NCBI GenBank assembly: GCA_963666485.2
Contig: CAXXUO010000009.1
Span: forward strand, 433,517 to 497,516
Length of the DNA stretch: 64,000 bases
Direction: 5' to 3'
DNA from: Syntrophorhabdaceae bacterium
Lineage (GTDB): Bacteria; Desulfobacterota; Syntrophorhabdia; Syntrophorhabdales; Syntrophorhabdaceae
Shown: in pieces, positions 20,134 to 54,220 of the stretch
Position numbering within the stretch: the stretch's first letter is position 1
Layout of the letters: each line of letters opens with the position of its first letter
The notes under the pieces: generated by a model
Databases searched by the model: none
What the model saw: only the letters and a program-made list of their open reading frames with translations
Told to the model about the DNA's origin: nothing
Program-made: the position numbers and the translations under genes

Positions 20134-20171
20134 AATCGATGTAATTGTGTCAACTATATGAGGTGAGTCAG

Positions 20172-20450
20172 ATGATCAAGAAACTCCCCGCCTTAAAGGC
20201 CAGACAGAATCTCGGCCAGATTATGAACGAGGTATCCATAAAAGGTGATGATTACATCATCGAGAGGGCGGGCAAACCACTGGTTGCCATCATCTCTATC
20301 GACAAGTATCAAACGATACAACAGGATAGAAAAGAGGCGCTGGAAGCGCTCACCGATGTCTGGGGAAAAATGGCGGAAGTAGATCCGGACGTGATCGAAG
20401 ACGCCATCACAAAGGCGGTCCGGGCGGTAAGAAGTAAACACCGCGCATGA
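20172..20450 (+). CDS. Phd/YefM-family antitoxin
   Basis: KARQNLGQIMNEV..YIIERAGKPLVA; GAGG RBS. Confidence 0.88.
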   Translation: MIKKLPALKARQNLGQIMNEVSIKGDDYIIERAGKPLVAIISIDKYQTIQQDRKEALEALTDVWGKMAEVDPDVIEDAITKAVRAVRSKHRA

Positions 20451-20878
20451 CAAGGATTGTCCTCGATACAAACCTGTTTATAAGCGCCTTTCTTTCACCC
20501 CGGGGCAAACCGGCGAGCATCCTTGCAATGTGCGTCAGCGGAGAAATGGACCTGCTGATCTCCCCCGCCATCTTGAAAGAGATCACACTTGTTCTGGGCT
20601 ATGCGAAGATCCTGAGGCTCCTGAAGAAACAGGGCATTACCCGGATCTATATTGCAGAAAAACTGCAAAAGGTCATCAAGACCGCCATCATGGTGCCCGG
20701 TGATCTTACCGTGCACCACATCGAGTCAGACCCCTCGGACAACGACATTCTGGCTTGTGCCCTCGAAGGCCGGGCGGATTACATCATCTCCGGCGATCAT
20801 CATCTTACCGACCTGGGATCTTTTCAGGGCATCCCGATCCTCACCCCGGATGTGTTTTTGAACATACTTCATAGGTAG
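20447..20878 (+). CDS. PIN-domain (VapC-like) toxin
   Basis: IVLDTN..E..DPSDNDILACA..ADYIISGD.HL; ATGA overlap with antitoxin. Confidence 0.9.
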   Translation: MTRIVLDTNLFISAFLSPRGKPASILAMCVSGEMDLLISPAILKEITLVLGYAKILRLLKKQGITRIYIAEKLQKVIKTAIMVPGDLTVHHIESDPSDNDILACALEGRADYIISGDHHLTDLGSFQGIPILTPDVFLNILHR

Positions 20879-20960: not shown

Positions 20961-21389
20961 TCAATGCCCGGTTATGAATCTCCGAATGGTCTTTTCTATA
21001 TACTCCGTCGGCAGCTGCGCGTCTTCGATCCCCCTGTTGATCTCTTCCGCATAGCCCTTGCGGGGCACACCTTCGCCCTCGACCGGATCCACATAGACGA
21101 GACATCTCACGGGGGAACCATGAATCTCCACATCCGGGTATTCCTTCACGTACGCGCCGCCCTTCACCCCTTCGTAACGGTCCAAGAATCTCTCATCCGA
21201 ATCCGATATTTCATAAACGAGACCATACACGGCATCTAACGGTGACTTAATTATATTGGCGTACCCCCGGGCGGAGATGATCCACCGATATCCCGACAGG
21301 GTCCCCTTGCCGATCACACGGTGGTCAGGGCACCTCCTGTCCATTTGCCGCCGGCACATGTTTGAACCATACGCAAAATAGAGGGTCAT
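20961..21389 (-). CDS. Gamma-glutamylcyclotransferase family protein
   Basis: LYFAYGSNM..LDRYEG. Confidence 0.88.
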   Translation of the reverse strand: MTLYFAYGSNMCRRQMDRRCPDHRVIGKGTLSGYRWIISARGYANIIKSPLDAVYGLVYEISDSDERFLDRYEGVKGGAYVKEYPDVEIHGSPVRCLVYVDPVEGEGVPRKGYAEEINRGIEDAQLPTEYIEKTIRRFITGH

Positions 21390-21841
21390 GTCGCTTGTTC
21401 TCCCTTTAAATTACTCAACCACTCGAGCGTCCTATGGTCCGGCTCCCCGTCGAAGTACTTAGCGAGGGCCCCGGCGAAAACGGATTCCGGACCGGTCACG
21501 CTCGCAAACAGCGTCATGCAGGACCTGAATTTCAAATCGTCAGGATAGTCGAAGATCTCGGATATTCCGCGTCCTTCGATGGCCAGGACCGCTTCCGTGC
21601 ACTCCGTGAGCCTCGTTTCGAGGATGGGGTGGTCGAGGTAGCGTTTCGCTTCCACGATGCTCTTAATGGCGTAAAACTCGCTCGTCCGCGTATACCCTAA
21701 CCCGTCGATCTGGGGGAAGATAAACCACATCCAGTGGGTCCTCTTTCTGCCGCCTTTCAGTTCTGCGAGGATTCTGTTGTAATTACCGGCCTGGGCGTCC
21801 ATGAAGCGGTCTATAAAGAACGGGTCGCTGTATGTCGTCAT
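21386..21841 (-). CDS. DUF1810 family protein
   Basis: RF..AQ..EL..GRKRTHWMWFIFPQ..DDLKFRSCMTLF. Confidence 0.9.
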   Translation of the reverse strand: MTTYSDPFFIDRFMDAQAGNYNRILAELKGGRKRTHWMWFIFPQIDGLGYTRTSEFYAIKSIVEAKRYLDHPILETRLTECTEAVLAIEGRGISEIFDYPDDLKFRSCMTLFASVTGPESVFAGALAKYFDGEPDHRTLEWLSNLKGEQAT

Positions 21842-21946
21842 AGAGGTTCGGTCACCGTCTGCTTCGGCCCATCGTTCATATCAGGTTCACCTTTTTAAGC
21901 CCCATCCGAGCTTGCCCAATTACGCTTCCTTCCCGGTTGGTGCGAA

Positions 21947-22393
21947 TTATCCCTCTCGCAACCTAAAGAGCTGAACCGCTTCTTTCGTACTCAACCTGGT
22001 CGGGTCAACTTTAATCCCGACCCTCGGAAGGTCTAACCTGTCCGCATCCCAACATGTCTGAATTGAAACGTCATCGCTTCTCGAACATGGTTTGTCATGG
22101 AAACGACAGGCGAAGATCAATTGGCCCAATTGTTTCCCGGAAACGTCCAGCATCCGTTTAGCGAATAGTTCCTGCACGAATACTGCCGCCCTTTCGCCGT
22201 GGCCATCATCGTCGGACTCGTCAACCCTTTTTGAGTCGTGCAGATAGGAAAACAAATACACCACTGTCAGGTCGGCCCCGTTATTTTTCCCGATGGCTTG
22301 TCCAAATTCCCAGACATGGTCCCAATGCCTTTTTCCATGAATAGAATCAGAACCCAGCCTGAATTCTTTTTCTACGAGACTTAAAATATCCAC
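21947..22393 (-). CDS. HD-domain phosphohydrolase
   Basis: HG..HW..LHD..HG..CWDADRLDL.RVG. Confidence 0.85.
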   Translation of the reverse strand: MDILSLVEKEFRLGSDSIHGKRHWDHVWEFGQAIGKNNGADLTVVYLFSYLHDSKRVDESDDDGHGERAAVFVQELFAKRMLDVSGKQLGQLIFACRFHDKPCSRSDDVSIQTCWDADRLDLPRVGIKVDPTRLSTKEAVQLFRLREG

Positions 22394-22428
22394 AGGCTAT
22401 TGTAACTTATCCCTTCTATGTTTCCGGT

Positions 22429-22677
22429 CTATACCTCTATTATTTCTATTGATTGCGGGCTGATCAGGCTTGGCGTTCGGTGGCTTCGTTGGTTGCTCAT
22501 GCGTATGCTATAGCCCTTTTTAAGATACGGTAAGAGTTCCTCAATGGTATTAACCCATATATAGTCTCTTTCAAAGCGGGTCATGCTTGCAACATATTTC
22601 CCGTCGCTATGTTGATGAGGATATAGTACTGCCCCACGGCTTTCCCCGCGTGTCACTGTATAGCGCAGCGTTATCAT
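22429..22677 (-). CDS. Small hypothetical protein
   Basis: 82 aa ORF with RBS, co-oriented with neighbours. Confidence 0.55.
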   Translation of the reverse strand: MITLRYTVTRGESRGAVLYPHQHSDGKYVASMTRFERDYIWVNTIEELLPYLKKGYSIRMSNQRSHRTPSLISPQSIEIIEV

Positions 22678-23000
22678 AGTGCGATCCCCAATGTATCGTA
22701 TTTATTTTGTAAATTTGATGTTTAGCACGATAACCAATATCCCAGTTTGGACGGTTCCCCGACCCGGGTATATCGCCTTTCGACGGGTTTCGTTTTTGCT
22801 GCACTCCATGTTAGCGATGAATCCGGAATGTCTCTTATATTTCTGCCTTTTAGTGGATCATGCTTAGCTTATCATAAACCAATCGGTCGCCTATCAGAAA
22901 AGACATTCACGAATTCAGGGGCGTCCCTGAACCCTCCAATTGTACCTCTTGAAATCATATCCCGATGGTTGCCTATTTGGTTACAGTTAAGTTCCCACTA

Positions 23001-23867
23001 TTATTCGTGGTACTCCCACGCTGTTTTAAATAATTCTTTTAGACCATCTGATGTCTTCGGATTATCTAATCTAAGCTGAATCGCAAAGGAATCGGCGCGT
23101 TTTTTCTTGTTAAATGCGATTTCGGCATTGTCCAAAAGTTCTTTTATCTTTTCAACGTTTTCATCCCCAACGCGAATTTCGAAGTGACAGTACGTTTCCT
23201 TCTTCTTGGGATGAAACCATGCGAAATTCTTTCTTGGTGTTCCGACCGCTATATGGCCCTTATTGTATGTGATTTTCGGGTTATATCCAAGCCCTTCGAT
23301 GTTCTTTACGGCCTGGTCAAAAATGGATATCGATTTGTTATTGGCTCGTTTCACCCAGTAAGACCGGTCGGCTTTTTCGGCAGCTTCCGTATCTTCTTCC
23401 TCGGGCTCTTCGTATACATCGAGGACTTTTGTAAAATTGAGGATAATCTTATCTTCATATTTGATTGCAGCGAGTTGAATGGCTATTATTGGAATTGATC
23501 TATTTAGCAACGAAATCACGTTGAAAAAACGATTGGTAATGTCTTCCGCTACAATGACAGCGACATGGTCCTTTGACAAGAAACGACGTCTTTCGATGTC
23601 CCAATATTCTATTGTTCGTATAATATGACTCTCATCGAGTGTGCCGAGCATAATCTCGGTTTCATACATGGTCTGAGCATCGGGATCTACCAACAAAAGA
23701 TCAATTTTGCCTCCAGAAGATTGTTTTTTTTCCTTCTGATATAATGTTAAATCGCCTAATCCTAAGATTGATGGATCTTCTGCAATTCTATCTTGCAGCC
23801 ATTTTTCATTAAGGTCAGGATGTTTCTTCAGGCTAATTATATCTGGTTTTATGTATTCAAGATTCAT
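23001..23867 (-). CDS. NucS/DUF91-like PD-(D/E)xK nuclease with C-terminal DUF5655-like domain
   Basis: EKWLQD..GKIDLL..YETEIMLG.LDESHIIRTIEYW. Confidence 0.7.
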   Translation of the reverse strand: MNLEYIKPDIISLKKHPDLNEKWLQDRIAEDPSILGLGDLTLYQKEKKQSSGGKIDLLLVDPDAQTMYETEIMLGTLDESHIIRTIEYWDIERRRFLSKDHVAVIVAEDITNRFFNVISLLNRSIPIIAIQLAAIKYEDKIILNFTKVLDVYEEPEEEDTEAAEKADRSYWVKRANNKSISIFDQAVKNIEGLGYNPKITYNKGHIAVGTPRKNFAWFHPKKKETYCHFEIRVGDENVEKIKELLDNAEIAFNKKKRADSFAIQLRLDNPKTSDGLKELFKTAWEYHE

Positions 23868-23997
23868 CTTCCTCTCCTCTCTGTTGATGAAATGCTCTCT
23901 GAAATAGTTTGAATAACGCCTATTATTCTAACCTTTTACCCTTTAAATAAAAGTATTTCAAGGCCAATGGATCGAGAAAGGGTGAGGAATGTGGTAT

Positions 23998-24345
23998 TTA
24001 TCTGGATGATCGTTGTACGAATTTATGAATCCCTCGGGCTTTTTTGTGGTCAAGGCCAAGGCGATATAGGTCATCTGGATGTATGTTTGCCAAGTGTTCG
24101 ATGCTTTTTATTCCGTTGTCTACTAATTTCATTACGGTCACTTTGCCGATTCTATCTATAGCCAGAAGCTTTCCGAGCGTGGCGCCGAGGCTAATGTTGT
24201 TGATTAACTCGAGTGTTTTCATTTTAAGGGAATCGAGTTTTGTAGCATTTGCGGGAATCGCAGATCTGTGAGATGACGTTCAAGGCCCAGACGCAGGTGA
24301 ATTTGAGATCGTCCTCCAGCTTGCCTACCTCGGTGTTGTATTCGC
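23998..24345 (-). pseudogene. C-terminal fragment resembling the HhH end of a Ski2-like helicase
   Basis: ISLGA..LLAIDRIGKVTVMKLVDNGIKS; frame extends upstream across an AAAA run; no helicase core present. Confidence 0.4.
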
Positions 24346-24589
24346 GGGTTAGTTGGTCGAGTTTTGTGCCTTTCGCGTGGCGGTGAGGTAGGTTGGACAC
24401 CCATAAGGCTCCTCCGCCTGTTGCTTCGGTAATAGATCCTTAGCCCAGCTTTTATCCCCTGGGTGATCAAATTTCAAGGAAAAAGGAATGCTATCAGAAT
24501 CTATTTAAAAACCTAAGAGGCCAGCCGATGATTAGTTATGTCTCGCGGTTCCGCGGATTAGTAACAACGCTTAGTAGCAATTACTTAAT

Positions 24590-25138
24590 CTATCCTTGTC
24601 CGCAAGCCCTGAGAAGGCTGAACAGTTCCTCCTCGGTCGCGTTTCCCCATTGGACGGCTTCCCTGGGATTTCTGTTGACTGCATCGAGCGCCTCTTCTAC
24701 GGGCAGGCCATACCGATATACGACCCACGCCGCCAGGACATGCCCTGTCCTTCCCAACCCGCCCGAGCAGTGGACAAGGACCGGCAATTCCTTCTCTTCA
24801 GACTCTGCAAGAAACGGAAGGATTTCATCTCTCAGCGCAGAAATCTCTGCAAGATGGAAATCTTTAACCGGAACAGCTAGAACGTTCAAATCACCGAATT
24901 CCTTCGAATACGTTTCGACAAGATTATTTTCATAGTAGGTTTGCAATTCCCGCTCCTGCAAAAGACAGCAAATACGCCTTATCCCCTTTTCTTTTATAAA
25001 AGACAACCAAACGTGTACCGCTGATAAGGACACTTTTCCGGGTCCATAACCCGGTCTTTGAGATCCGAATACAAACCTCTCTTCCGAACACGCTGGCCCA
25101 AACGCAAATTTGTCGTGGCTCACCAACTCCTCCTTCAC
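24590..25138 (-). CDS. Dual-specificity protein phosphatase family protein
   Basis: HCSGGLGRTG (CX5R) motif. Confidence 0.9.
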   Translation of the reverse strand: MKEELVSHDKFAFGPACSEERFVFGSQRPGYGPGKVSLSAVHVWLSFIKEKGIRRICCLLQERELQTYYENNLVETYSKEFGDLNVLAVPVKDFHLAEISALRDEILPFLAESEEKELPVLVHCSGGLGRTGHVLAAWVVYRYGLPVEEALDAVNRNPREAVQWGNATEEELFSLLRACGQG

Positions 25139-25504
25139 ACTTTTGATACTTTCTTATACCACATAACGGCGACAGCGTTATGGCACTTTGCTTCTTAAAA
25201 GACTTACTGCAAGATCGATCACATTTTCTTCATCGTGCGGAGAACATTCTACGATATCGTTGGCCGCCATCATCATATTGGTAACGGTCTGGATTGCACT
25301 ACGCAGGCACAATGGGAAGGCCGGGCATTGACTAGTTCGACAGGTGGCACCTCTGTTTTCCCCAATACTGTGTCTTGGCTGTCTTTGTGCGTCAGATAGA
25401 GCACTAGTATAAAACAAGATTTATACGATATCTTCATGATAGGCGAAGTCGAAAGATAGGATTCGGCAATGCGGACAAGCTCGTATTGAATACATGGGGG
25501 AGTT

Positions 25505-28500
25505 ATGATTGAAGAAATAGTAGCTTTAAAAGATAATCATGTTCCAACTATTTTGTTTTATGATTCGGAGCAACAACATTACATAATCGGGCAGGAAGCA
25601 CGCCAATTTGGACTGCAGGGCAAGACTAATGCATTCAATTTCAAGGTTGATCTCGGTGCTAATGATAAGACGTTTTCTCTAGACAAGAAGTACTGGATCG
25701 TTCCTAAGCATGGATACCTTGAGTCAAAAAAGACGTCCGTTACAATAGATGCACGAAGCCTTACAGCAAAGGAGGTAACCGTATTCTTTCTGAAAGAATT
25801 TCTCAAAGATCTACAAATGCCCAAGGAGATCATAATTGGTGAACCGGCTGAAAGAGATACCGTGTGGCGAGAAAACTTCAGACGACATATGCGAGATGTT
25901 TTCGAGGAGCTCTATCACATAACCCCCCAGTTTTTTCCTGAACCTTTTGCGGTGTTTCAGTATTATAGACATTACGAAAGCACGTTCAGAACCGAGAGTG
26001 TGTCTGAGACTGTCCTAATAATTGACGTCGGAGGAGGTACGTTTAACAGTTGCATTATTAGCACTACAGAAGAAGGTTATCTGTCAAGGGGCGGGGCCAA
26101 ATCAGTGCCTCAAGGATTTCAGGCGGAATTCTGCGGCGGTACCCAAATAGACAAGAAATTGCTCGAGACAGTAATAGCAAAAGCAAAACGACAGGGCATA
26201 AAATGGAAGGACGATCCAATTGCTCGAGCCGAAAAATCGCAGATCCCAGTGTTATTGACCATAGAGGATGTCAAAATAAAACTGTCAGATAGAATTGGCC
26301 CGTCAGGAAAGCTCTCAGACGATTTTTCTAACATAAAGGAAGTTGTCTGTTTAGAGCAGGGTACTTTGCATCCCGATTCAGATATCCGAGTGGAAATCAG
26401 TGGAGAGGATCTGAAGCTAGTCATAAGATATATGTGGCGCCATCACTGGGCTAACATTATTACGAAAACCGTCACAGAGGCTAAGAAAAAAATACAATTT
26501 GATAATCTTGATAAAATTCTTGTTGCTGGCGGTTCATCTAGGCTGCCATTCTCGAAAGAAGAAATACACCTTGTTATGAGATCTCTTGTCGATTTCCAGG
26601 ACATACACTTTAGTTCCGATACAGGAAAAGCGGTCGCATTTGGAATAGCATGTGAGTGTATGGAACAGATCAAAAGGAACCCTCAGCTCTCAGTCGGAAA
26701 AATAGCTCCATGCATTCTCAACGACCTATATCTAGGATTTCGAAAGACAAGGAGAGATCCGGTGATAATTCCCAAGAAGATTCATGGACCAGATGGATCG
26801 ATCTCTAAGGAAGGTCAACTTCTTTCGGCTCCCTTTGAGACTGAGGAACTATCTCTTAGATACAAAGTTGATTTGCCGTTTGACTGTGAAGGACGGCTCT
26901 TCTATTGTTTTAGCGACGTACCCTTCGAAGACGGGCCTGATAGAACGTATCTGAATCTCAACCAGGACGTTTTGTCGGTGACAAATAGAGGGAGCAAATA
27001 CCGAAGAAAATGCGAGCTTCAAATTGATTTTAAAACGAATGGCACAATTAAACCCATTTTTTATTTTACAAGGGAAGGTAAAGATGCGGGAGAGGAAATA
27101 GTACCATGTGGCGAGTTCTATATGGAAAATCTTCGCATACAGGAAGGTGAGAGTTTCCTTGGAATCGATTTCGGATCTTCAAATTCATATTTGGCTAAAT
27201 TACTTAGGGCTGAAGAGAAGGTTCAATCATTTGAATTCCCGGATTATAAAATAAAATCCGAAGTGATGGACCTGCTCAGGAAACTTGAAGGAGAAATTGA
27301 TGAACTGCGCACAGGAAAGGCCCTTAGCAAGCAAGCCATGATGGAGTACGCAAAGGACCAAATACTGCTGTTAGTCTTTCATTCAAATAAGATCGAGGGT
27401 AGTCCCTTGACCAAAGGGGAAACCGAAACGGCATTTGGAAAACAGGAGTCTGTTGAGATTACGAAACAAGAGCTTGAAGCAAGAAATCTCCGAAATGCGT
27501 ATGGTTGGATGATTGATAATGCTGATTATGTTTACACCGACCCAGAAGGATTTATCAGACAGGTCAATAGCATGATTCTCGATGGTATCATTCATGGGGG
27601 AGGTGCATACCGAAAGAAAAGTGTGAGTTTGGCTGGAATGGATTACACGCCACCTCCGAGTATATCGATTCCTTCCTATATGGAGAGACTAAGGGAGGAC
27701 CTGGTCACCGGACCAACGGGACGTTCTTTGTTGGAGTTCGCCATCACAATGCATACAAAACTTGTTGCAATACATCCCTTTATTGACGCAAACGGCCGAA
27801 CGGCGCGGCTGTTGATGAACGCTATCCTATTGGCTGGCGGGCTTCCTGTCGTCATAATAAATTTTGACGACAAACAGAGATACTTAGACGCCCTGTCCGA
27901 ATCTAACCATGGCGATATTTCAGCATTAGTAGTCTTTGTGTCGGAATGCTTTCGTGCCCAACTGGATGAGCTTAGAACACAGCCAGTGATGACTGAAGAA
28001 ATAATCCCGACAACGACTTTGCCGGAAGGTGCTGATCCCATTGCAGAGGCACTCAAAGAGATAGGGGTGGAATTTGTAGATGACCCACTTCAACTAATAA
28101 TGAATCAGAGGCTTAAGGAATTAGCTGAAATGAAAGAGGCTCAATATGGTTCCTGGAAACAGGCATTTTCAACCTTGCTATCGGAAATGAGATCCATATG
28201 TGAGGGGTTTAACTGTAATTCGAAGTTTAGAAATGAAGGATTCCGCATTGATCTTATGGAATATGATATGCTCTCTTCGGACAAGTATTTGGATATTTTA
28301 GCCAACAAAAAAGTATCAAGAACTTGGTTTTTTGGTTTAGCAGTTCTTGGTCCTTCATCCTATGTCAAGGCGTTATTCTTTTTCGAACACCTCCCCGTAC
28401 ACTTTGGGGATATGCCCGAGATAAACAAGGTGATGTTGACATTGGTTCGTTTCAATGGTGCAACCTACGATAGACTAACATCAGAACCCATAACTTTGAG

Positions 28501-28630
28501 AGGAGTTGCATATAGCAACGGTCAACTCGTTTTTCTGGGACGCAATAGCATAATAGAAAAGGATACTCCAAGGCATGCGCTTACTGTCTTATTGGCCGAT
28601 TTGATTACCGCCTATGTTACGGTTAAGTAA
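25505..28630 (+). CDS. Hsp70-like ATPase fused to Fic domain
   Basis: EPFAV, IIDVGGGTFN, GGTQID, AGGSSRLP, AVAFG; GIDFGSSNS at aa ~553; SNKIEG at aa ~627; HPFIDANGRTAR at aa ~757. Confidence 0.9.
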   Translation: MIEEIVALKDNHVPTILFYDSEQQHYIIGQEARQFGLQGKTNAFNFKVDLGANDKTFSLDKKYWIVPKHGYLESKKTSVTIDARSLTAKEVTVFFLKEFLKDLQMPKEIIIGEPAERDTVWRENFRRHMRDVFEELYHITPQFFPEPFAVFQYYRHYESTFRTESVSETVLIIDVGGGTFNSCIISTTEEGYLSRGGAKSVPQGFQAEFCGGTQIDKKLLETVIAKAKRQGIKWKDDPIARAEKSQIPVLLTIEDVKIKLSDRIGPSGKLSDDFSNIKEVVCLEQGTLHPDSDIRVEISGEDLKLVIRYMWRHHWANIITKTVTEAKKKIQFDNLDKILVAGGSSRLPFSKEEIHLVMRSLVDFQDIHFSSDTGKAVAFGIACECMEQIKRNPQLSVGKIAPCILNDLYLGFRKTRRDPVIIPKKIHGPDGSISKEGQLLSAPFETEELSLRYKVDLPFDCEGRLFYCFSDVPFEDGPDRTYLNLNQDVLSVTNRGSKYRRKCELQIDFKTNGTIKPIFYFTREGKDAGEEIVPCGEFYMENLRIQEGESFLGIDFGSSNSYLAKLLRAEEKVQSFEFPDYKIKSEVMDLLRKLEGEIDELRTGKALSKQAMMEYAKDQILLLVFHSNKIEGSPLTKGETETAFGKQESVEITKQELEARNLRNAYGWMIDNADYVYTDPEGFIRQVNSMILDGIIHGGGAYRKKSVSLAGMDYTPPPSISIPSYMERLREDLVTGPTGRSLLEFAITMHTKLVAIHPFIDANGRTARLLMNAILLAGGLPVVIINFDDKQRYLDALSESNHGDISALVVFVSECFRAQLDELRTQPVMTEEIIPTTTLPEGADPIAEALKEIGVEFVDDPLQLIMNQRLKELAEMKEAQYGSWKQAFSTLLSEMRSICEGFNCNSKFRNEGFRIDLMEYDMLSSDKYLDILANKKVSRTWFFGLAVLGPSSYVKALFFFEHLPVHFGDMPEINKVMLTLVRFNGATYDRLTSEPITLRGVAYSNGQLVFLGRNSIIEKDTPRHALTVLLADLITAYVTVK

Positions 28631-32301: not shown

Positions 32302-33369
32302 TTAGTTTTTTTGAAAAGACTCGGTCACGTCAATTACGCCCGTGCTTGGTGGAGCATCATCAAGATAGACGGTCCAACTCAGAATCACTCCCTGTTTCTC
32401 TAGGGGTGTTCCTGCGGGAACATGAATGATCAAGCTTTCATCCGGGAAAATAACCCGATCTTCAGGAAAGATTTTTATTTCGGCCGAACGATATTCATTC
32501 ATGGGTAGTGTAGTACTTTGTGAACCAGTAGCAAATCGAAATCCGAATTTTGTATCGGACGGTACTTCCGAAAGGAAAGTGGTGCCGCGTAATTTTACCT
32601 TAAAGAGTTCCGAGCTCATCGAAAAAGCCAGGCACAGTACCAAGTCACGAATTGTCACTTCACCGGTATTGACAAGAGAAAGTTGAAAAGAAAATTGATC
32701 ATAGTCTCGCTTTGGGGCCACAAGATCTTTATGCTCTGGTACTCCACGACCGTATAAAACAACTTCTCCTTCCTTCCTGCGACGTTCAATTTCCGCCAGT
32801 TTGGCTTGTCGGGTTGCCCATTCCTGCTCGGCAGTCAGGATACGGCAATTGGAAATCTCGACACGGATCTGCGGAACGCGACCACGAGACATAAGGAGGC
32901 GAATGACATTGTCGGGCAGGGGCTTTGACTCAAACTCCGATCGTCCGTAGTATCGATATGAGTGCCTTGCCTGATAGGCAGTACTGCCCTTAGGGACTGT
33001 CACGATATATGCAACTCGTCCCTCCTTATCGCCGGACAGAAGGATGGGTCGGACTCTCAGACCGGGAATAGGGGGGCTGATGTTAGATGTGATGATTTGT
33101 TCAAGTGTTTCTGGCGGCATTACTAAGGGATCACAGCCTTCATCAATCTCTTTTGCAACGCTTTTCCTCCCGTGCCTACCCTCACGTAGACCTATAACAA
33201 TAACTCCTCCCTCCGTGTTCGCAAATGCAGAAACATCCTCGGTAAGCTGTTTTTCTATTCGCTCTTTGGGTTGGTCGAGAAGGGCAGACGCCTTGAAATC
33301 CAATCGTATGGACTCATACTGTCCGATGAGTTGTTTCAGGTCTTCTTCTGTCTCTATGCTTTTTTCCAT
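32302..33369 (-). CDS. Schlafen/AlbA_2 domain protein with unknown C-terminal domain
   Basis: ESIRLDFK..DVSAFANTEGGVIVIG..YYGRS. Confidence 0.88.
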   Translation of the reverse strand: MEKSIETEEDLKQLIGQYESIRLDFKASALLDQPKERIEKQLTEDVSAFANTEGGVIVIGLREGRHGRKSVAKEIDEGCDPLVMPPETLEQIITSNISPPIPGLRVRPILLSGDKEGRVAYIVTVPKGSTAYQARHSYRYYGRSEFESKPLPDNVIRLLMSRGRVPQIRVEISNCRILTAEQEWATRQAKLAEIERRRKEGEVVLYGRGVPEHKDLVAPKRDYDQFSFQLSLVNTGEVTIRDLVLCLAFSMSSELFKVKLRGTTFLSEVPSDTKFGFRFATGSQSTTLPMNEYRSAEIKIFPEDRVIFPDESLIIHVPAGTPLEKQGVILSWTVYLDDAPPSTGVIDVTESFQKN

Positions 33370-37672: not shown

Positions 37673-38488
37673 CTATTTGTAAATTTGAGACCAAACTTCT
37701 GAAGATGGTTGTAATTTGTGAATGATCCATGGACGCATCTGCCTGTCTATCCTGACCGAGTTGGTCTCTTCAATGAGATTGAGAATGGCGTCTGTATCCG
37801 ATTGAACCCAGGAAGCGGCGTCGAACATTCCGCTAACTGAATTAAGGTCGTATGCAGTAACCTGTATTTGACCGGGAAATTCATCTTCGATGATCTGTAA
37901 AATATAAGCTGCGTAAACTCTTGCGTAATTCCTGGCAATTGGCGCCTTACCGCTAACAACCTGCTTTTCCAGTTTTTTCAAAGGATCTATTTTGCCTAAT
38001 GCAACATCGTCATGATAAGTTCTTATTAAAGGACCAATCCGATTCCTACCGGGTCCAAAAATGTTCTTGAGATAGTCCTCAAGCTTGGTCACCGTGAAGG
38101 AAGCACCCAATATATCTCTGCCCCTGACAAATGTCTCATACCATGCCGCTGCACCATGCGAAGGATGACATAAACTGAGGTGCGCGATCCACTGGGTTAC
38201 CGGTTGACTCAGCAAAGCATCTTCAAGCAACACAATTCGACCAAAATTCGTTAGAACAGGATGTCTGATACCGTTCTTGGATTTCAAATCATACTGGATT
38301 AAGCCCATTCCCCTAGCATAATCTATGATTGCCGGCACCTTGCCATTTGATTTTCCCATCGGGATCCCGGTGGCACCGGCTATGTCATGGTAGCTTCCTG
38401 ACAAACCGTTTCCCGCATACTGAAGCAAGCTATTAAGCAGTCGTCTTTCCGGAATAAAAGTTCTATGAAAGTTAATTGGCAATGACAT
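37673..38488 (-). CDS. DUF4007/SspB-like winged-helix protein (second copy)
   Basis: FHRTF..GIPMGK..YARGMGL..LTNFG..D.LL....TQWIAH.L parallels the DUF4007 motifs of CDS 54221-55171. Confidence 0.6.
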   Translation of the reverse strand: MSLPINFHRTFIPERRLLNSLLQYAGNGLSGSYHDIAGATGIPMGKSNGKVPAIIDYARGMGLIQYDLKSKNGIRHPVLTNFGRIVLLEDALLSQPVTQWIAHLSLCHPSHGAAAWYETFVRGRDILGASFTVTKLEDYLKNIFGPGRNRIGPLIRTYHDDVALGKIDPLKKLEKQVVSGKAPIARNYARVYAAYILQIIEDEFPGQIQVTAYDLNSVSGMFDAASWVQSDTDAILNLIEETNSVRIDRQMRPWIIHKLQPSSEVWSQIYK

Positions 38489-41400
38489 TTAGGTCGCACT
38501 CTCCTTACCAATATCTTTGAAACGTGATCTTAAAGATTCGATCTTGATGTGAAATGCTTTCGTCTCGAGCCCCTGCTGAGTGTTCAGCGAAGGTCCTAGG
38601 GAATAACATTCTCCTTTTTTAAGCCTGGAAAGACGTTGTATCCATATTTCAGCTTTTTCATTCGTGGTGTTTTCCAATATTTGGGCATAACTTCGCAATT
38701 CGGTATCCGCGGGCTTAAAGAATAATTTATGACTCGCTTGAAATAATCTGTCTTGTTCATCTTTTTTAAGATTGCTTAGAGTCTGCGTTGCCACAATGAG
38801 GGAGATCCCGAATTTTCTTCCCTCCGTTAGAAATTTACCGAGAGGACTTTCAAGGTCATGATCCAGGTTTTGAATTTCATCGAGTATTATGATCCTGGGT
38901 CTGTCTTTATTGCCCTTACCACGATAATACCAGTATAGATCGATAAGGGTGAATTCCGTGATCAACTTCGATGCATCCTTTAGAAAACCTGCCAGTTGAA
39001 GGATATGACAGCGGGAATTTTGATCCATAAACAAGGTCTCCCAATTATCGCCTTCCTCAGCGCCAAACGGATTCATATCGACAAAAGGCTGGATCTTGCT
39101 TACGACCGTCAAAGAAGATGGATTTTCGTCAACCATTTCTTTGAGTTCTTCGATCAATAAAGGCAAGGTCATTTCATTTCCGTGCGTTTCTATTCCTCTC
39201 TTTATGGCCGTGTAGAGGGCCGATTTTTGCTGGTCGCCAAATTCGTAAACTTCGGAAAAAACCCCGCTAACCCTCTGTGCCGTATTAGACGGGTCTTCCG
39301 GAAGAAGCATTTCGCCGATCATGTCTTCCTGCCGCCTGAAAGGATTTATGGGTAATGGATCCTTTCGTACAATATGTTGAACAGGTTTCAACATCTTTCT
39401 TGTCTCAGTTTCCAGCTGATTGTCATAAAATCCGTTGGTATAGTCCACTATTAAAGAATTTTGGCCGGCCCGACCGAGTTCACATAATAAGGCTTGGATC
39501 GCATACGTCTTTCCCATCCCGGACGTGCCAAATATGAGTATATGCCTGTTCGCTAAGTCCTGGTGACCGAATTCCCAGAACACTTGTCTATTGCCTTGAG
39601 CGCCTTGGCCCAGAAAGATCCTCTGGGGCAATTTCGGCTCAATTGTGCCGCGATACTCGGGTTCGCTAACGTCCGGTTTCTTGTCTGAGATTGATGTCTG
39701 TGAATCGTTGTCCGAAGCACTGCCCGTCTCACCTCCCGGTGCTTGTTGTTTCTCTTCGTTGATTTCTATCGAAGGTTTTATTTCTTTTTCTAGCGTAATA
39801 CTTGAATAATCAAGGCTTTGTTCACCCAAAGGCAAATAGGTATCAAGGTTGTTCAGGCATAGAGATTTTACGAATTGACGGCCGGCGGATATCACCCCTG
39901 CCATCAGAGTGTTTTCGCCTACTTGAAACTCCCAATCGGCGACCCTGGCTATGTTCGATTGATCGGAGTCAGTCCAAAAGGTAACCGCCGCCGCCTTCCA
40001 TTGAATCGTAAAAAAACCATCGCTCAGCCTCTCAAGGGCATTAATAGCATCTTTAAACTGCGGATACTTCACTCGTCCCTTGCTCGCTATCAGGCGTTGG
40101 AGCTGCAGCCACCAATATCGCTGATCGGGCCTGTCATCAATTCCCTCATTCTTACCTTGACGAGGTTTGAAGCAATCTACCAAATGGCTCAGACCACTCT
40201 GAAGCTGTTCTCGGGCCTTTTCAAGATGCGTCTCAGATTCCTGGGCGAGTTTGCACTCGAACAGTTGCGATTCGATCCGGAACTGCCCATCTATTATTGT
40301 GGCCTTCAAACGCAATAGATCTGGTCTGTTATTATTTGGTGACGAATCAAACCAATGCCGAAAGGCATCGAGAGAGACAATCTCGTCACAGAAAGCATCG
40401 GCATCCCTTGGAAGCAATTTTCGCAACAAAGCGTACGAGATATAATCTCTGACGTATTGCGACGGCCCCGTGGCCTTAACGAGGGACAAACCCGCCATAT
40501 GCAGAGATTCGCTGATGATGCTTGATGCCATATTGTTGCTTGCCTCGTGATCCAAAGGCCCCAGTTTCGACGCTATGTGCGACGCAATCTTAGACCGGAC
40601 TTGTGCGATCCTGAAGAAATCCGTCGATATGGTATAGTTATGCTCGCCATGGCTACCGACGCCAGACCCAAATCCGATAATTTCTCTTTGCCGGATACCA
40701 TTATGATCTTCTTTTCCTATTAGCCTTTCATCTACGGATGGGTCGATACACACTACCCAGGTGCTTCTTTCGTGCAGTTTGTCGACCAGTCTTTTCCAAG
40801 GTGCAAAATCGCCTTTTCCCATTACTATGTAATCCTTCTCTGCAACATGCGTCGGCAGCTTCAAGCGTGCCATTACTTGAGAATGCAGGGTGCCTAAGAC
40901 AAATTGGCGATTGCTGATAATCCTTTCGCGTACCCAATCCATACCGCCGCCTACCACTGAGCAACAGGCTTTTTCTAAGACGGGGAACATTCGGAATTTT
41001 CCGCTTGCGTCATACGGCTCAATCTCTTCAAACTTATTTCCCCCCGCCCCTGCACGGACAAAATGGACCAAGAAGGATAGATCAACATTAATTTGGGAGA
41101 TCAGGTTTTCGAACAATGTATGGTCTTTCTGCTGGGTAATGAGGCGGTGAGCAACTGAGATCTTACACCAACTGTAGTAGTCATACTTTGCCGAATACTC
41201 TGCACCAATCCACCTTTCACGCCAAGCACTAACCCATTTTGTCATTGCGGTGTCATCCTGAGTTTCGGCAAAGAGGATGAGCGAAAGAGTGTAAGGTCTA
41301 TCGCCGCTCCTAATTTTTGCCAGTTCGCGCAAATAGGCATCTATACCTGCTATAACAGGTTGGACAGGCCCCCCGCAGTAGGCACTTATGGATAGGCCAT

Positions 41401-43774
41401 CGTCAGCGTGGGCATACAGTGACCGATAGTCTTCCAATACCCTTTGAATAAGTCGAGACTCTCGGGTTTCTTCGAACAAGTCCTCATCCGATATATCATC
41501 CTCGTCGCCCGTATCATAACGAAGAAGAAGTTTCGTCGACAGGCTGGTATCACCGGAGCTATCTTCACCGACTATATGGAAAATTCCGAAACTCTTTACG
41601 TTTGTGTCCAAGATCTGGTCTTCGTTGCGGAGCGTACCGTATATTGGCCATTGTATTTTGGCGAGGTCCATGACATCCGTCCACCGCCTCTCATTAAATC
41701 CTTTTTGGCTAGATACCCATAGCGCTTGTCGTGCCGCAGTTTCGAAACTTTCAGAAAGAAAGGAATGTTGGTGTACGATCATCTCAAGGAGTGCCGGGTG
41801 CAAAGGAGTGATAATTGCTGAAGGCTCGAAGCCCTTCCATATCCACAGGCTTGTCGGGTGATCCTCACGTTCACCCACCATAAAAAATGCCTTGAACAGC
41901 AGGGCGCCCAATCGGCTCGTTTTACACTCGGGATCCACCAGAAATGCTTTGTACGTCTTCCGATAGGCTGCATCCAGTGGACCGAACTTATTATTTAGCG
42001 CCGAAAAGAGGCCTTCTTCATGGGCTTCCTTAATGAAGTGTCCGTAGGCATAAGCAAGTTCCATCAAATGAGAGTATGTCTTGTCGTGCGTGTCTATGCC
42101 GTCGGCGCCAAGAAGATGCACGATATTTTTCGATTCGCTCTCCAAAGCCTGCACCAATATTCGATTTACTTCATCATCATCTTTTGCCAATGAGAGCTCT
42201 TCGCTGTAAGGAATGCAGAAGACGGGCAAGGCATTAATGCGCTTTGAAAGCGCATGTTCATATGCCCAAGAAAACATGGAAGCCATATTACGGTATGGAT
42301 GGTTCTTGGGAATAGGCCAAACGAATTTTCTTGTGACGCCCTTGTTGGGTCCTAAAATAGACACCGTAAATTCCAAAAGGGGTTCGGCTCTAATAGACCG
42401 ATTATAAGCCAGATCACCATCCTCCATAGAAGGGCACAGGGAGCAACTGATTCCTATGGTATCCTCAGGTGTTTCTCTGGGATTAGGTGCGAACGCAAGG
42501 TGTTCTTCAATATAATTATCGAGACCTCCGATCAGCTGTCTTAAAAGTTGGTGTGCGATATCCGGGTCATTTTCTTCGCAGTCATGCCGAAACAAGTTCC
42601 CTTGGATCCTGATCTCTTTGATTGCTTCGCCTGCAATTATCCCCTGTTCTTGCGTCCACCTTTTATATTCAGCCAAAGTTATCCAGACCGATCGCAGAAC
42701 AACTTCAAGGGGCATCCCTGTTAACTTTCTTGTCTTTATTTCCCTGCTTTTTTCCTTTCTTTTCCTAAACCCAAGAATCTCGTCCAAAATGTAGGGAAAA
42801 TCTGAATACATCAAATTTGCTTGTGCATTCGAATCCTTTTTCTCGATGTAACGCTTCAGATCTTCAATCAATTCTTGAATCGTCTTATAGTGACCACCTA
42901 AATCATCGAGATCTACCTCTTCCGCCTTCCCGGTCTCTATTAAGTGCTGCAAATATTGATCAATTTTTTGAATCGCTTTCTTTCGGCCTTGTTTATCAAG
43001 AAAACTTCCATAGTTAAAAAATTCCACGGCGGACTTAATATAGTGGCGAATTCGAACTTTTCTTTTAGCCGACATCAATCCCTTCATAGAGGGAAGTCTA
43101 AAGTACCCCAAACTTTCTACGATAACCCTCATGGCATCCCTGCCATCCTGGGCATGCGAAAGGTCGATGCTTTCCAAAAAAATGCTTATCCGGATAATAT
43201 CGGCAAGACTCGTGTCGACGAGTGACTTGAGTATCTCGTCTATAAAAGCAATGTGATCACTTTCCGCTTCGACAGAAGCCTCCTTGAGCCTTCGTCTTAT
43301 CCAGGGTGAGAACGTGCCTTGAAGCCACTGCTCCCATAATGTTTGGTAATCAAGCCGATAGAAGTCATAGAGACTTGCTTGGTCGGGTACCTGATCGGAT
43401 CCGATCAATACGGTAACCAGGACATCTTCCGTTTGGGGATTTCTTTTTTCGTTTCTCGAAGCTGTAAGATGATTTTCTGCATCATACCACCCGCGCTGCT
43501 CAATCTCCTTGAACAGGGCCGACTCTTCCGGATCGTTGCTTGCTCTCCATAGTTGGCCCAACCTGTATGCCGTTTTTATGATTAACTTGATCCGACAATC
43601 CGGCTTTTTGGTATCGCGGTATTCCTCCAATGCCTCACCAATTGCGAGGACGATCCTTGCTGGGGCAGAAGGCAATACGACTCTGAGCTCCCTTGCGTCA
43701 GTTGACGGGGTCTTCAACATATTCTTGATTTGTTCTAGGATTGCATCTATTACCGAAGAGGAGTAGAAGATCAT
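38489..43774 (-). CDS. SspH/DndH(DptH)-like protein with C-terminal HerA/FtsK ATPase
   Basis: 1761 aa; PLHP motif; PD..ECK nuclease-like motif; NRHILIFGTSGMGKT, LDEIQNL, EGRKFG..ATQ. Confidence 0.75.
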   Translation of the reverse strand: MIFYSSSVIDAILEQIKNMLKTPSTDARELRVVLPSAPARIVLAIGEALEEYRDTKKPDCRIKLIIKTAYRLGQLWRASNDPEESALFKEIEQRGWYDAENHLTASRNEKRNPQTEDVLVTVLIGSDQVPDQASLYDFYRLDYQTLWEQWLQGTFSPWIRRRLKEASVEAESDHIAFIDEILKSLVDTSLADIIRISIFLESIDLSHAQDGRDAMRVIVESLGYFRLPSMKGLMSAKRKVRIRHYIKSAVEFFNYGSFLDKQGRKKAIQKIDQYLQHLIETGKAEEVDLDDLGGHYKTIQELIEDLKRYIEKKDSNAQANLMYSDFPYILDEILGFRKRKEKSREIKTRKLTGMPLEVVLRSVWITLAEYKRWTQEQGIIAGEAIKEIRIQGNLFRHDCEENDPDIAHQLLRQLIGGLDNYIEEHLAFAPNPRETPEDTIGISCSLCPSMEDGDLAYNRSIRAEPLLEFTVSILGPNKGVTRKFVWPIPKNHPYRNMASMFSWAYEHALSKRINALPVFCIPYSEELSLAKDDDEVNRILVQALESESKNIVHLLGADGIDTHDKTYSHLMELAYAYGHFIKEAHEEGLFSALNNKFGPLDAAYRKTYKAFLVDPECKTSRLGALLFKAFFMVGEREDHPTSLWIWKGFEPSAIITPLHPALLEMIVHQHSFLSESFETAARQALWVSSQKGFNERRWTDVMDLAKIQWPIYGTLRNEDQILDTNVKSFGIFHIVGEDSSGDTSLSTKLLLRYDTGDEDDISDEDLFEETRESRLIQRVLEDYRSLYAHADDGLSISAYCGGPVQPVIAGIDAYLRELAKIRSGDRPYTLSLILFAETQDDTAMTKWVSAWRERWIGAEYSAKYDYYSWCKISVAHRLITQQKDHTLFENLISQINVDLSFLVHFVRAGAGGNKFEEIEPYDASGKFRMFPVLEKACCSVVGGGMDWVRERIISNRQFVLGTLHSQVMARLKLPTHVAEKDYIVMGKGDFAPWKRLVDKLHERSTWVVCIDPSVDERLIGKEDHNGIRQREIIGFGSGVGSHGEHNYTISTDFFRIAQVRSKIASHIASKLGPLDHEASNNMASSIISESLHMAGLSLVKATGPSQYVRDYISYALLRKLLPRDADAFCDEIVSLDAFRHWFDSSPNNNRPDLLRLKATIIDGQFRIESQLFECKLAQESETHLEKAREQLQSGLSHLVDCFKPRQGKNEGIDDRPDQRYWWLQLQRLIASKGRVKYPQFKDAINALERLSDGFFTIQWKAAAVTFWTDSDQSNIARVADWEFQVGENTLMAGVISAGRQFVKSLCLNNLDTYLPLGEQSLDYSSITLEKEIKPSIEINEEKQQAPGGETGSASDNDSQTSISDKKPDVSEPEYRGTIEPKLPQRIFLGQGAQGNRQVFWEFGHQDLANRHILIFGTSGMGKTYAIQALLCELGRAGQNSLIVDYTNGFYDNQLETETRKMLKPVQHIVRKDPLPINPFRRQEDMIGEMLLPEDPSNTAQRVSGVFSEVYEFGDQQKSALYTAIKRGIETHGNEMTLPLLIEELKEMVDENPSSLTVVSKIQPFVDMNPFGAEEGDNWETLFMDQNSRCHILQLAGFLKDASKLITEFTLIDLYWYYRGKGNKDRPRIIILDEIQNLDHDLESPLGKFLTEGRKFGISLIVATQTLSNLKKDEQDRLFQASHKLFFKPADTELRSYAQILENTTNEKAEIWIQRLSRLKKGECYSLGPSLNTQQGLETKAFHIKIESLRSRFKDIGKESAT

Positions 43775-49990: not shown

Positions 49991-50810
49991 TTGCTTTGGC
50001 CTCTTTACTCTTGGTTCTACATTGATATGTGCCATGTAAATTGTTAGAACACAAAATATCAATCAACTTCTTTTTTTCGTGGAAATCGCGGGGCATATCA
50101 TCTTGAGACTTATCCGTGTCCTTTAAGTCTCTTAAAAATTTGGGCTTACCTTTCTCTCCCGTCCTCCATGTATATACTCGACAATCTGAATGTTTTTCCT
50201 CATACTGGCAAGCCTTTTCAAACAAATCAGGATGATGTCTTCGAAGCCCAATCCAATCCTTTTCGCTTTGATAAAAGCAAAAAAAACAGCCGGATCTTTT
50301 TCTCCACGAATAATACCCGGGCATTCCCAATCCTGCTGTTCGTAAAATATTTTCGACGTCGGAGAGAATTATCCCGTCATCAACAAACGGATGGCGCGGG
50401 ATAATATTGGGAATGGTCGGTTTATAACCTTCACGTTTTTCGTCTGCACGCAATGCTACATAACTGTAGACTTTTTTGTCGCCAACATAGGCTTCGAAGG
50501 GCTCTAATTTCAATAATCTAGTGCACCATCTATTTTGTGGTGAAGGAAGTACGCCTTTAAAATATTTAAGCCAGTAATCGAAGTTTCTACGCGGCTTTAG
50601 TACATTGATATCTACATTTAGAACCGCTCGAATCCTATTTAAATACTTATAGGTCTCAGGAAGCTCACAACCACTATCCGTGAATACATATTCCATTTGT
50701 AGTTTCGGATATTTTTCCTTCATATAAATTGCAAGAGCAGCGCTATCTTTGCCCCCTGAAAGCGCTAGAATATGATGCTCGTGTTGGTTGGAACAGTTAT
50801 TTATGTTCAT
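49983..50810 (-). CDS. PAPS-reductase family protein (SspD/BrxP-like)
   Basis: LSGGKDS, DSGCELPETY, RWCTRLLK, RSGCFFCFYQ. Confidence 0.88.
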   Translation of the reverse strand: MNINNCSNQHEHHILALSGGKDSAALAIYMKEKYPKLQMEYVFTDSGCELPETYKYLNRIRAVLNVDINVLKPRRNFDYWLKYFKGVLPSPQNRWCTRLLKLEPFEAYVGDKKVYSYVALRADEKREGYKPTIPNIIPRHPFVDDGIILSDVENILRTAGLGMPGYYSWRKRSGCFFCFYQSEKDWIGLRRHHPDLFEKACQYEEKHSDCRVYTWRTGEKGKPKFLRDLKDTDKSQDDMPRDFHEKKKLIDILCSNNLHGTYQCRTKSKEAKANE

Positions 50811-54213: not shown

Positions 54214-54220
54214 GATTGCC

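Follow-up and report, generated by a model that had tools for sequence, protein, structure and literature searches.

The gene and its product

The present analysis concerns a stretch of 64,000 nucleotides from the genome of a Syntrophorhabdaceae bacterium (assembly GCA_963666485.2, contig CAXXUO010000009.1), hereafter called the window, and more precisely the gene located at positions 25505-28630 of its + strand. This gene is a single uninterrupted open reading frame (ORF) of 1041 amino acids (aa) plus a stop, whose product combines an Hsp70-type ATPase module, a class II Fic domain and a C-terminal unit. The initial annotation, made from the letters of the DNA, had recognized an Hsp70 ATPase and a Fic AMPylase in one polypeptide, and this description holds: HSP70 and Fic both pass their Pfam cut-offs, nothing else matches in Pfam at E <= 1, and the predicted structure agrees. 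The motifs that it had cited are all found in the translation, EPFA at residues 146-149, DVGGGT at 174-179, GGTQID at 211-216 and AGGSSRLP at 341-348 in the Hsp70 part, SNKIEG at 627-632 and HPFIDANGRTAR at 757-768 in the Fic part.

The full-length AlphaFold2 model was computed from 53 homologues and reaches a mean predicted local distance difference test (pLDDT) of 85.9 and a predicted template modelling score (pTM) of 0.55. Conservation was read from an alignment of 53 sequences sharing 31-78% identity with the query, with a mean column identity of 46%; the residue counts given below refer to this set. Taken as a whole, the architecture described in the next sections, including a circular permutation at the sequence level, can be stated with high confidence. 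The permutation, the beta domain that resembles the substrate-binding domain of Hsp70, the C-terminal unit and the residue Ala762 were absent from the initial annotation.

A circularly permuted Hsp70-type module

The N-terminal part of the protein is related to the nucleotide-binding domain (NBD) of Hsp70 chaperones. Pfam HSP70 matches aa 166-385 above its curated cut-off (E 2e-8, 33.4 bits against 20.6). Structural alignment with VIA-align superposes model residues 3-391 on residues 21-385 of DnaK (7kru_B, Z 26.4, rmsd 3.4 Å, 327 aligned), and about forty other Hsp70 NBDs align similarly (Z 26-28), the alignment always starting near chaperone residue 20-25. When the family profile is compared by hhalign with the DnaKs of the window's lineage, query residues 5-705 align on DnaK 29-618 (probability 98%, E 1.9e-13), the identity across the whole Hsp70 module being 18%. 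In the same comparison, K47 is the counterpart of the catalytic lysine carried by the 'FxxK' segment of DnaK. The catalytic Lys, Glu and Asp and the phosphate-2 loop of an actin-like NBD are present as K47, E146, D174 and G176-G-G-T179 in 53/53 relatives, and the complete list of invariant ATPase residues comprises K47, E146, D174, G176, G178, T179, G342, G343 and S344.

The NBD is followed by a beta-sandwich that resembles the beta part of the Hsp70 substrate-binding domain (SBD-beta). DnaK without SBD-alpha (5obv) aligns over 434 residues of model 3-539 by VIA, versus about 327 for chains that consist of the NBD only, and ranks first in Foldseek (E 4.8e-17, 551 columns). The hhalign comparison also pairs the focal segment 'ELQIDFKTNGTIKP' with the classic DnaK strand pair 'EVTFDIDANGIL'. 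The SBD-alpha lid is not present in the full model or its VIA alignments, in which the beta domain is followed by a hairpin and then by the Fic domain.

The phosphate-1 motif of Hsp70 reads 'GIDLGTTNS' and, in the canonical order, its hairpin occupies the extreme N-terminus of the chaperone. The focal protein departs from this order, as model residue 3 corresponds to DnaK residue 21 and the profile alignment starts from DnaK 29. A local profile comparison locates the equivalent of DnaK 3-21, GxDFGTSNSY, at aa 549-567, behind the beta domain (probability 78%, E 1.8e-5). In the full model, the two strands span aa 545-555 and 560-569, with a block-mean pLDDT of 84-88 over aa 541-570, and residues G553, D555, G557, N560 and Y562 are found in 53/53 relatives. 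Because the N-terminus begins around DnaK 21-29, K47 corresponds to the DnaK lysine and the hairpin stands after the beta domain, the ATPase domain is circularly permuted in sequence. From homology, invariance and high pLDDT, the hairpin may be expected to fold back onto the ATPase as part of its lobe IA. The PADLOC profile PDC-M61B (588 positions) is consistent with a permutation, since its order is opposite to that of P0173 and P0189, two members of a sister family described below: profile positions 97-146 match the hairpin region of P0173 (aa 556-603), whereas it is positions 346-423 that match aa 178-251 of P0189, its phosphate-2 region, both matches being weak. A longer N-terminus or a separate upstream ORF that would supply the hairpin was also considered and ruled out, the ORF beginning at the first start codon downstream of a stop and the relatives aligning from residue 1-4.

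The protein scores far below the equivalog cut-offs of genuine chaperones (TIGR02350 for DnaK, 30.4 bits against 822.55; HscA, 18.1 against 708.55), and an ordinary DnaK is encoded elsewhere in the same genome, on another contig.

A class II Fic domain and a C-terminal unit

The Pfam Fic match extends over aa 683-775 (E 3.6e-15, 57 bits for a cut-off of 24). Two PADLOC models cover a larger region, PDC-S04 (E 1.5e-24, aa 613-809) and SoFic (E 1e-22, aa 577-822), and the NCBIfam matches, to models of DnaK, HscA, Fic and Doc, all stay below threshold. The initial annotation had likened this domain to the class II enzyme FICD, an assignment borne out by both sequence and fold. By VIA, aa 584-828 superpose on human FICD 6i7h with Z 28.0, rmsd 2.8 Å, 237 aligned residues and 23% identity, the other top matches being FICD 4u04_A (Z 28.1) and FIC-1 of Caenorhabditis elegans (Z 26.8). 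In a profile search of all PDB sequences, FICD comes first (E 1.6e-39, 138.5 bits) and FIC-1 next (115 bits), ahead of the bacterial Fic structures 7xux (100 bits), 3cuc (99), 4x2e (86) and 4rgl (74); a single-sequence query of the PDB retrieves FICD at E 4.8e-18. Human FICD is therefore the closest solved structure by profile and by fold, which is not to say the closest relative: eukaryotic FICD could not be recognized among the closest database relatives of the Fic part, most of these matches being nameless.

The inhibitory (S/T)xxxE(G/N) helix that characterizes class II lies in the same chain, N-terminal to the Fic core. Its motif, S627xxxE631-G, lies 126 residues before the catalytic His757, and S627, K629 and E631 are found in 53/53 relatives. 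The catalytic loop HPFIDANGRTAR agrees with the pattern HxFx(D/E)GNGRxxR at its H, F, D, N, G, R and R positions in 53/53 relatives, and H757, P758, F759, D761, N763, G764, R765 and R768 are all invariant. Position 762 is an Ala in the focal protein; among the 53 relatives it is Gly in 41 and Ala in 12. The intact loop predicts AMP transfer by this domain. A set of 17 further members, at 19-24% identity, retains K47, E146, D174, G176, G177, G342, G343, D555, G557, S627, E631 and the residues of the Fic loop. To judge from this conservation, both enzymes appear to be active, the Fic domain being presumably kept off by its own inhibitory glutamate. A complex prediction between the Hsp70 module (1-572) and the Fic domain (577-832) returned a score of 0.00, which is evidence neither way.

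In the full model, a disordered linker (aa 828-857) joins the Fic domain to the C-terminal unit, a long helix followed by an alpha/beta sandwich. This unit, when modelled separately, gives a pLDDT of 91.8 and a pTM of 0.83. It corresponds to no Pfam family, Foldseek finds nothing at E <= 1e-3 and the Protein Atlas nothing usable. Among 48161 chains compared by VIA, none reaches Z >= 8; the best match, frataxin/CyaY (4hs5_A), has Z 7.4, rmsd 3.3 Å and 99 aligned residues and remains below the level of a shared fold.

Family, modularity and distribution

A search for full-length homologues had been proposed as a check against an assembly chimera. A word-indexed search retrieved 92 relatives, most of them 1010-1117 aa long, with 33-78% identity and 96-100% query coverage, and both Pfam domains are present in 79 of the 92, down to about 20% identity. 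An exhaustive search of 1.84 billion cluster representatives yielded 103 matches at E <= 1e-30; 39 of its best 150 matches are 964-1117 aa long. Five distant representatives (P0131, P0134, P0140, P0143 and P0160, at 25-28% identity) all carry Pfam Fic, and four of them an actin-fold/Hsp70 match. With the N-terminal module as query, 39 metagenome loci were retrieved, of which 19 contain an intact ORF of 1028-1117 aa. Since 79/92 relatives and 19/39 loci carry the whole arrangement, the Hsp70-Fic architecture is conserved, and an assembly chimera is ruled out. In three other loci of the 39, the gene is split over two or three successive ORFs (L096:7992-11102, L098:982-4098 and L102:941-4051), which are either decayed genes or assembly frameshifts. 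A contig scan with a generic Fic motif was uninformative, as it returned 80 ordinary Fic loci (L001-L080) and no full-length relative.

The Hsp70 module is not confined to Fic proteins. A sister family of about 900-930 aa, represented in our alignment A3 by 14 sequences (P0172, P0173, P0176, P0185, P0189, P0196, P0197, P0210, P0212, P0213, P0220, P0191, P0091 and P0092), shares the permuted NBD, the beta domain and an invariant G-x-D-F-G hairpin. Its hhalign match with the focal family covers query residues 10-566 (probability 100%, E 1.4e-75) and stops directly after the hairpin. Beyond this point the sister proteins carry a conserved non-Fic C-terminus of about 300 aa with motifs such as QRSAGPLW, KHxK and GHCYxFD; it has no match in Pfam or among PDB sequences, and the Protein Atlas gave only unnamed clusters, at 0.85. 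Conversely, stand-alone proteins of 444-466 aa cover 79-91% of aa 577-1041, that is the Fic domain with the C-terminal unit, at 27-31% identity. The occurrence of the module on another C-terminus, together with these stand-alone proteins, indicates that the focal protein arose by fusion of a portable permuted-Hsp70 module to a pre-existing protein made of Fic and C-terminal unit.

The distribution of the gene is sporadic and transfer-like. Within the phylum of the window, one of 401 genomes has a match at E <= 1e-30, the window's own. The named relatives belong to metagenome-assembled genomes of Deltaproteobacteria, Thermodesulfobacteriota, Planctomycetota, Bacteroidota and Acidobacteriota, under the sole public names 'Fic family protein' or 'Fic family protein/molecular chaperone DnaK'. 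The full focal gene itself is contained in four sequencing runs, all from one sample, which may be the source of the window.

Genomic context

As the initial annotation had noted, the gene stands alone and in opposite orientation, with no other + strand gene in the interval that separates the - strand genes at 20961-25138 from those at 29618-58950 (Table 1). It lies inside a block of low GC content running from about 22000 to about 60000, with values of 0.37-0.48 against 0.50-0.57 in the flanks. A tRNA scan of the window found none, and hence no tRNA marking an insertion site or boundary of the island there. Promoter and terminator scans, including the 366-bp spacer upstream of the gene, performed no better than on shuffled sequence, and no conserved small ORF was found within 700 bp of the gene across the loci of the relatives.

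Table 1. Coordinates of the focal gene, its parts and the neighbouring genes in the window.
Feature	Position	Strand	Evidence or remark
Shine-Dalgarno-like GGGGGAG	25496-25502	+	sequence reading; 2 nt ahead of ATG at 25505
Whole ORF, 1041 aa (P0001)	25505-28630	+	translation; full-length relatives at 33-78% identity
Hsp70-type NBD without first beta-hairpin, aa 1-391	25505-26677	+	Pfam HSP70, VIA, hhalign; K47, E146, D174-x-G-G-G-T179, G342-G343-S344
SBD-beta-like beta-sandwich domain, aa 392-544	26678-27136	+	VIA, Foldseek, hhalign
Displaced phosphate-1 beta-hairpin, aa 545-569	27137-27211	+	local hhalign, invariance; core G553-I-D555-F-G557-S-S-N560-S-Y562
Class II Fic (Fido) domain, aa 585-828	27257-27988	+	Pfam Fic, PADLOC SoFic and PDC-S04, FICD structure and profile
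Inhibitory-helix motif S627-N-K-I-E631-G632	27383-27400	+	translation; S627, K629, E631 in 53/53 relatives
Fic catalytic loop H757-P-F-I-D-A-N-G-R-T-A-R768	27773-27808	+	translation, alignment
C-terminal unit: long helix aa 861-904, alpha/beta sandwich aa 914-1037	28076-28627	+	full model, separate domain model
Dual-specificity protein phosphatase	24590-25138	-	candidate defence/signalling gene; divergent, 366 bp from focal gene
Macro-domain protein, 571 aa	29618-31333	-	candidate defence/signalling gene
Schlafen/AlbA_2 protein	32302-33369	-	candidate defence/signalling gene
SspC-like protein, 1417 aa	33400-37653	-	second and very diverged SspC copy
DUF4007-like protein	37673-38488	-	partner of diverged SspC-like protein
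DndH/SspH-like ATPase, 1761 aa	38489-43774	-	
SspG-like protein	43776-45413	-	
Protein-kinase-SspF fusion	45413-48022	-	
Protein-kinase ORF	47974-48756	-	
NERD/PglW-like ORF	48731-50062	-	
SspB, SspC, SspD	50797-55171 and 49983-50810	-	
DinG-type helicase	55638-58346	-	candidate defence/signalling gene; resembles type IV CRISPR-associated Csf4

The defence-island setting claimed in the initial annotation is supported at two levels. In the window, a large defence block of the phosphorothioate (Ssp) type occupies 33400-55171 on the - strand. Among the relatives, ORFs of at least 90 aa located within 6 kb of the gene were collected (130 neighbours in 30 loci) and compared with PADLOC at E <= 1e-8. 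Matches were obtained for 24/130 neighbours, in 16/30 loci, and the strong ones include PsyrT/PsyrA, SspH/SspG, DndH, methyl-directed restriction enzymes, a type II restriction-modification pair and a PD-T4-6 kinase, as well as PDC-M05A, PDC-M26A, a DRT RmuC-like protein and NsnA. As a control, nine arbitrary 16-kb stretches of the window's own genome underwent the same processing and gave 10/129 matches, mostly generic helicase, HNH or cold-shock proteins. Fisher's test gives p = 0.016 for this difference, and p = 0.003 at >= 150 bits, with 12/130 neighbours against 1/129. The use of DnaK loci as a further PADLOC control was dropped, the same few orthologous genes being repeated there.

Apart from the DndH-like protein encoded in the window and in loci L082 and L083, no neighbour family is conserved across the 39 metagenome loci. 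These homologous DndH-like ATPases adjoin the Hsp70-Fic gene in L082:1-444 and L083:1308-6374, and the window copy lies 10 kb away; in L088, SspH and SspG are adjacent (L088:11706-17710). Such co-location could reflect a functional link or merely the sharing of islands.

Two further features of the window deserve mention. The NERD/PglW-like and protein-kinase ORFs overlap by 26 nt on one strand and resemble a single PglW-type kinase split by a frameshift or a programmed overlap. Just outside the low-GC island, at 20145-20878 on the + strand, an ORF of 101 aa overlaps by 4 nt the start of a PIN-domain ORF (20447-20878), a layout typical of toxin-antitoxin pairs.

A possible infection switch and its alternatives

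We propose that the focal gene may by itself constitute an abortive-infection switch of a defence island, whose Hsp70 module would gate AMPylation by the Fic domain; we give this reading an even chance of being correct. The effector would be the class II AMP-transferase, kept off by its own E631 sitting in the ATP site. The regulator would be the lidless Hsp70-type unit, with a working ATPase site and an SBD-beta-like domain able to bind a client. The wiring between the two would be provided by the hairpin that coordinates Mg-ATP through D555, which is attached to the beta domain at one end and, via a 15-residue linker, to the Fic domain at the other. A trigger arising in infection or proteotoxic stress, such as a phage protein, an exposed polypeptide or possibly RNA, would bind the beta domain and shift the nucleotide state of the ATPase. 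The hairpin would then move, and the change would reach the N-terminal region of the Fic domain or the oligomeric state of the protein, with displacement of E631. The Fic domain would finally AMPylate an essential cell protein, EF-Tu and GyrB/ParE being known targets of related bacterial Fic enzymes, and the resulting growth arrest would abort the infection. What we infer in this scheme is what sets it off, how the signal is coupled, which protein is modified and that a defence phenotype results; its output, an AMPylated essential host protein and abortive infection, is likely by analogy with Sofic/SoFic and with the Fic toxins that target topoisomerases.

The roles of sensor or switch for Hsp70 and of effector for Fic are favoured because the module is reused on another C-terminus, because the boundary of the module is the hairpin itself, and because the permutation makes the hairpin that senses ATP a connecting element from the beta domain to the Fic domain. 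Such a serial arrangement would offer a simple route from the nucleotide or client state to the inhibitory helix (aa 620-631) or to the oligomeric state, and AMPylation by FICD, like that by SoFic, is known to be controlled by the oligomeric state. In a bolder form, offered tentatively and rather doubtful, the permuted Hsp70 would be a mechanical coupler: client binding and ATP hydrolysis would pull the inhibitory region of the FICD-like domain open through the hairpin that senses the gamma-phosphate. Were this so, it would constitute a new way of gating toxins, the permuted module would drive at least one further effector, that of the sister family, and the Fic-Hsp70 partnership of the FICD-BiP type would be an ancient bacterial invention that predates animals and is used here for immunity.

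Several observations weigh against the proposed switch. The defence enrichment is moderate, and 14/30 loci have no PADLOC neighbour; genes taken from the same locus are not independent observations, and one genome supplied the whole control. Viral contigs gave one match, at 22% identity, and no clear family member, and the sequencing-run search lists no RNA run that contains the focal gene. The whole-model pTM of 0.55 limits the placement of the domains relative to each other. Ala762, in place of the consensus Gly, could alter nucleotide use; the phosphocholine transferase AnkX also has DANGR. Finally, the likeness to FICD also fits a regulation of the fused Hsp70 itself.

This last point leads to a different view of the protein, a self-regulating chaperone whose Fic domain would reversibly AMPylate and de-AMPylate the Hsp70 module of the same chain or of another subunit, much as FICD modifies BiP, and so serve as the off-switch of a stress chaperone and not as a toxin. 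The rank of FICD as closest solved Fic, by fold and by profile (138.5 bits, versus at most 100 for bacterial Fic structures), speaks for it, as do the invariance of the inhibitory glutamate, a residue that in FICD also performs de-AMPylation, and the retention of both the ATPase site and the SBD-beta-like domain. It is nevertheless rather unlikely. The same type of Hsp70 module sits on a non-Fic C-terminus in the sister family and therefore does not need Fic; conserved Ser, Thr or Tyr residues are lacking from the family consensus of the loop that aligns to the AMPylation loop of BiP; the lid domain is missing; an ordinary DnaK is available elsewhere in the genome; and a sporadic presence (1/401 genomes) in defence islands is unlike that of a housekeeping proteostasis factor. 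The sister family and the loop aligned to that of BiP, together with the stand-alone proteins made of Fic and C-terminal unit, somewhat weaken the suggestion of the initial annotation that the fusion is a 'Rosetta stone' in which the Hsp70 part is the substrate of the Fic part. A portable regulator or sensor fits better an Hsp70 module also found on an unrelated C-terminus.

The remaining alternatives keep the toxin and change its purpose, its input or its partners. An autoinhibited Fic toxin could stabilize a mobile island or answer abiotic stress with no phage-specific role. Fic/Doc toxins are common in toxin-antitoxin loci, weak NCBIfam matches point to 'mobile mystery protein B' and Doc, the gene resides in a low-GC block, at about 0.42-0.45 against 0.50-0.57 in the flanks, and copies are broken in 3/39 loci; yet no conserved antitoxin-like partner or small ORF accompanies it and the neighbours are specifically defence systems, not plasmid or transposon genes, which leaves such an addiction module quite improbable. 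The sensor-effector logic could also be retained with an Hsp70-like unit that senses, instead of a polypeptide, a nucleotide signal or nucleic acid, for instance aberrant RNA or the RNA of a virus. The beta domain is indeed very diverged from DnaK, at the 18% hhalign identity of the whole module, and RNA binding has been argued for defence-associated Hsp70-like NBD/SBD units, CnuD of CoCoNuT (PMC11090510). On the other hand, the motifs of CnuD are described there as degenerate, while the invariance of all focal ATPase residues fits a true hydrolysis cycle, and Pfam detects no RNA-binding domain; we see a slim chance for this alternative. It is very improbable that the protein is an accessory effector of phosphorothioate-based (Dnd/Ssp) restriction that works with a DndH/SspH-type protein and not alone. 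A DndH-like homologue does occur in the window (38489-43774) and in L083, L082, with an Hsp70-like module at 75% identity to the window's, has one immediately upstream in the same orientation, SspH and SspG are neighbours in L088 and an SspA/DndA-like gene is found in L090. These amount to only about 5/31 contexts, with varying order, distance and strand; in most loci, the nearest 6 kb contain no Dnd/Ssp gene, and co-location in defence islands is expected anyway.

The switch proposed above would have consequences that extend beyond this gene. A Fic enzyme that carries an inhibitory glutamate has to be switched on by some signal, and here a candidate switch, drawn from the best-understood family of allosteric ATPases, is part of the same protein, so that a few point mutants could serve to test how a class II Fic enzyme is activated. 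An Hsp70 circularly permuted in nature would be of interest to the structural biology of chaperones, and the focal family supplies a bacterial context for the relationship between FICD and BiP. The catalogue of anti-phage immunity gains a candidate single-gene system and a reusable sensor module of the Hsp70 type.

Comparison with known systems

The initial annotation had allowed for the possibility that this architecture was already characterized. In the full-text literature, a scope outside which fall most subscription journals and the supplements with architecture tables, no Hsp70-Fic fusion and no natural permuted Hsp70 was found described. Comparisons are made with systems that share a part of the protein.

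With DnaK and BiP, the focal protein shares the NBD fold, all catalytic residues and an SBD-beta-like domain after the NBD. It differs by the first beta-hairpin (DnaK 3-21), moved behind the beta domain, and by the lack of an SBD-alpha lid and C-terminal tail. With its permuted order, its missing lid and scores well under the DnaK cut-offs, the protein does not qualify as a canonical Hsp70. Its module can further be compared with that of the sister family (e.g. P0172), which has the module in common and about 300 aa of non-Fic C-terminus in place of the Fic part.

FICD/HYPE is likewise a class II enzyme with an N-terminal inhibitory glutamate helix at nearly equal spacing from the catalytic histidine, and is likewise paired with an Hsp70, BiP. 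In the focal protein, however, the Hsp70 precedes Fic in the same chain, is permuted and lidless, and the Fic domain is succeeded by a different C-terminal domain. Unlike that of FICD, the gene occurs in bacteria, sporadically and within defence islands. No TPR domain or membrane anchor appears among the Pfam matches at E <= 1, hence the protein is not an orthologue of FICD.

SoFic/Sofic shares the class II Fic domain and the defence-island setting. As published, Sofic provides abortive infection via AMPylation (PMC12249575), SoFic AMPylates EF-Tu under the control of dimerization (bioRxiv 10.64898/2026.07.09.737422), and other Fic toxins target topoisomerases (PMC7479194). The focal protein matches the PADLOC SoFic model at positions 13-266 of 361 only, its C-terminal part being unmatched, and scores 20.1 bits with NCBIfam ProtAdlyltaseSoFic against an equivalog cut-off of 550; it is thus not a SoFic orthologue. 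Moreover, it possesses an Hsp70 module that SoFic lacks, and no conserved small antitoxin like AS1 lies downstream of its gene.

The CoCoNuT/McrBC-type systems offer a parallel to an Hsp70-like unit placed in defence. An Hsp70-like NBD/SBD protein, CnuD, is there joined to a defence effector by fusion or by linkage as a predicted sensing part, and RNA binding is argued for such units (PMC11090510). The passages concerned mention no permutation and describe the CnuD motifs as degenerate (PMC11090510), in contrast to the intact catalytic motifs of the focal protein, whose effector is a Fic domain. Neither a McrB-type GTPase nor McrC (DUF2357) occurs among the 24 ORFs of the window or the PADLOC matches of the relatives' 130 neighbours. 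Fic defence toxins and defence-linked Hsp70-like units were thus already known; to judge by its sequence, the novelty of the present gene would be an Hsp70-type gate built into a Fic-based single-gene defence or toxin system.

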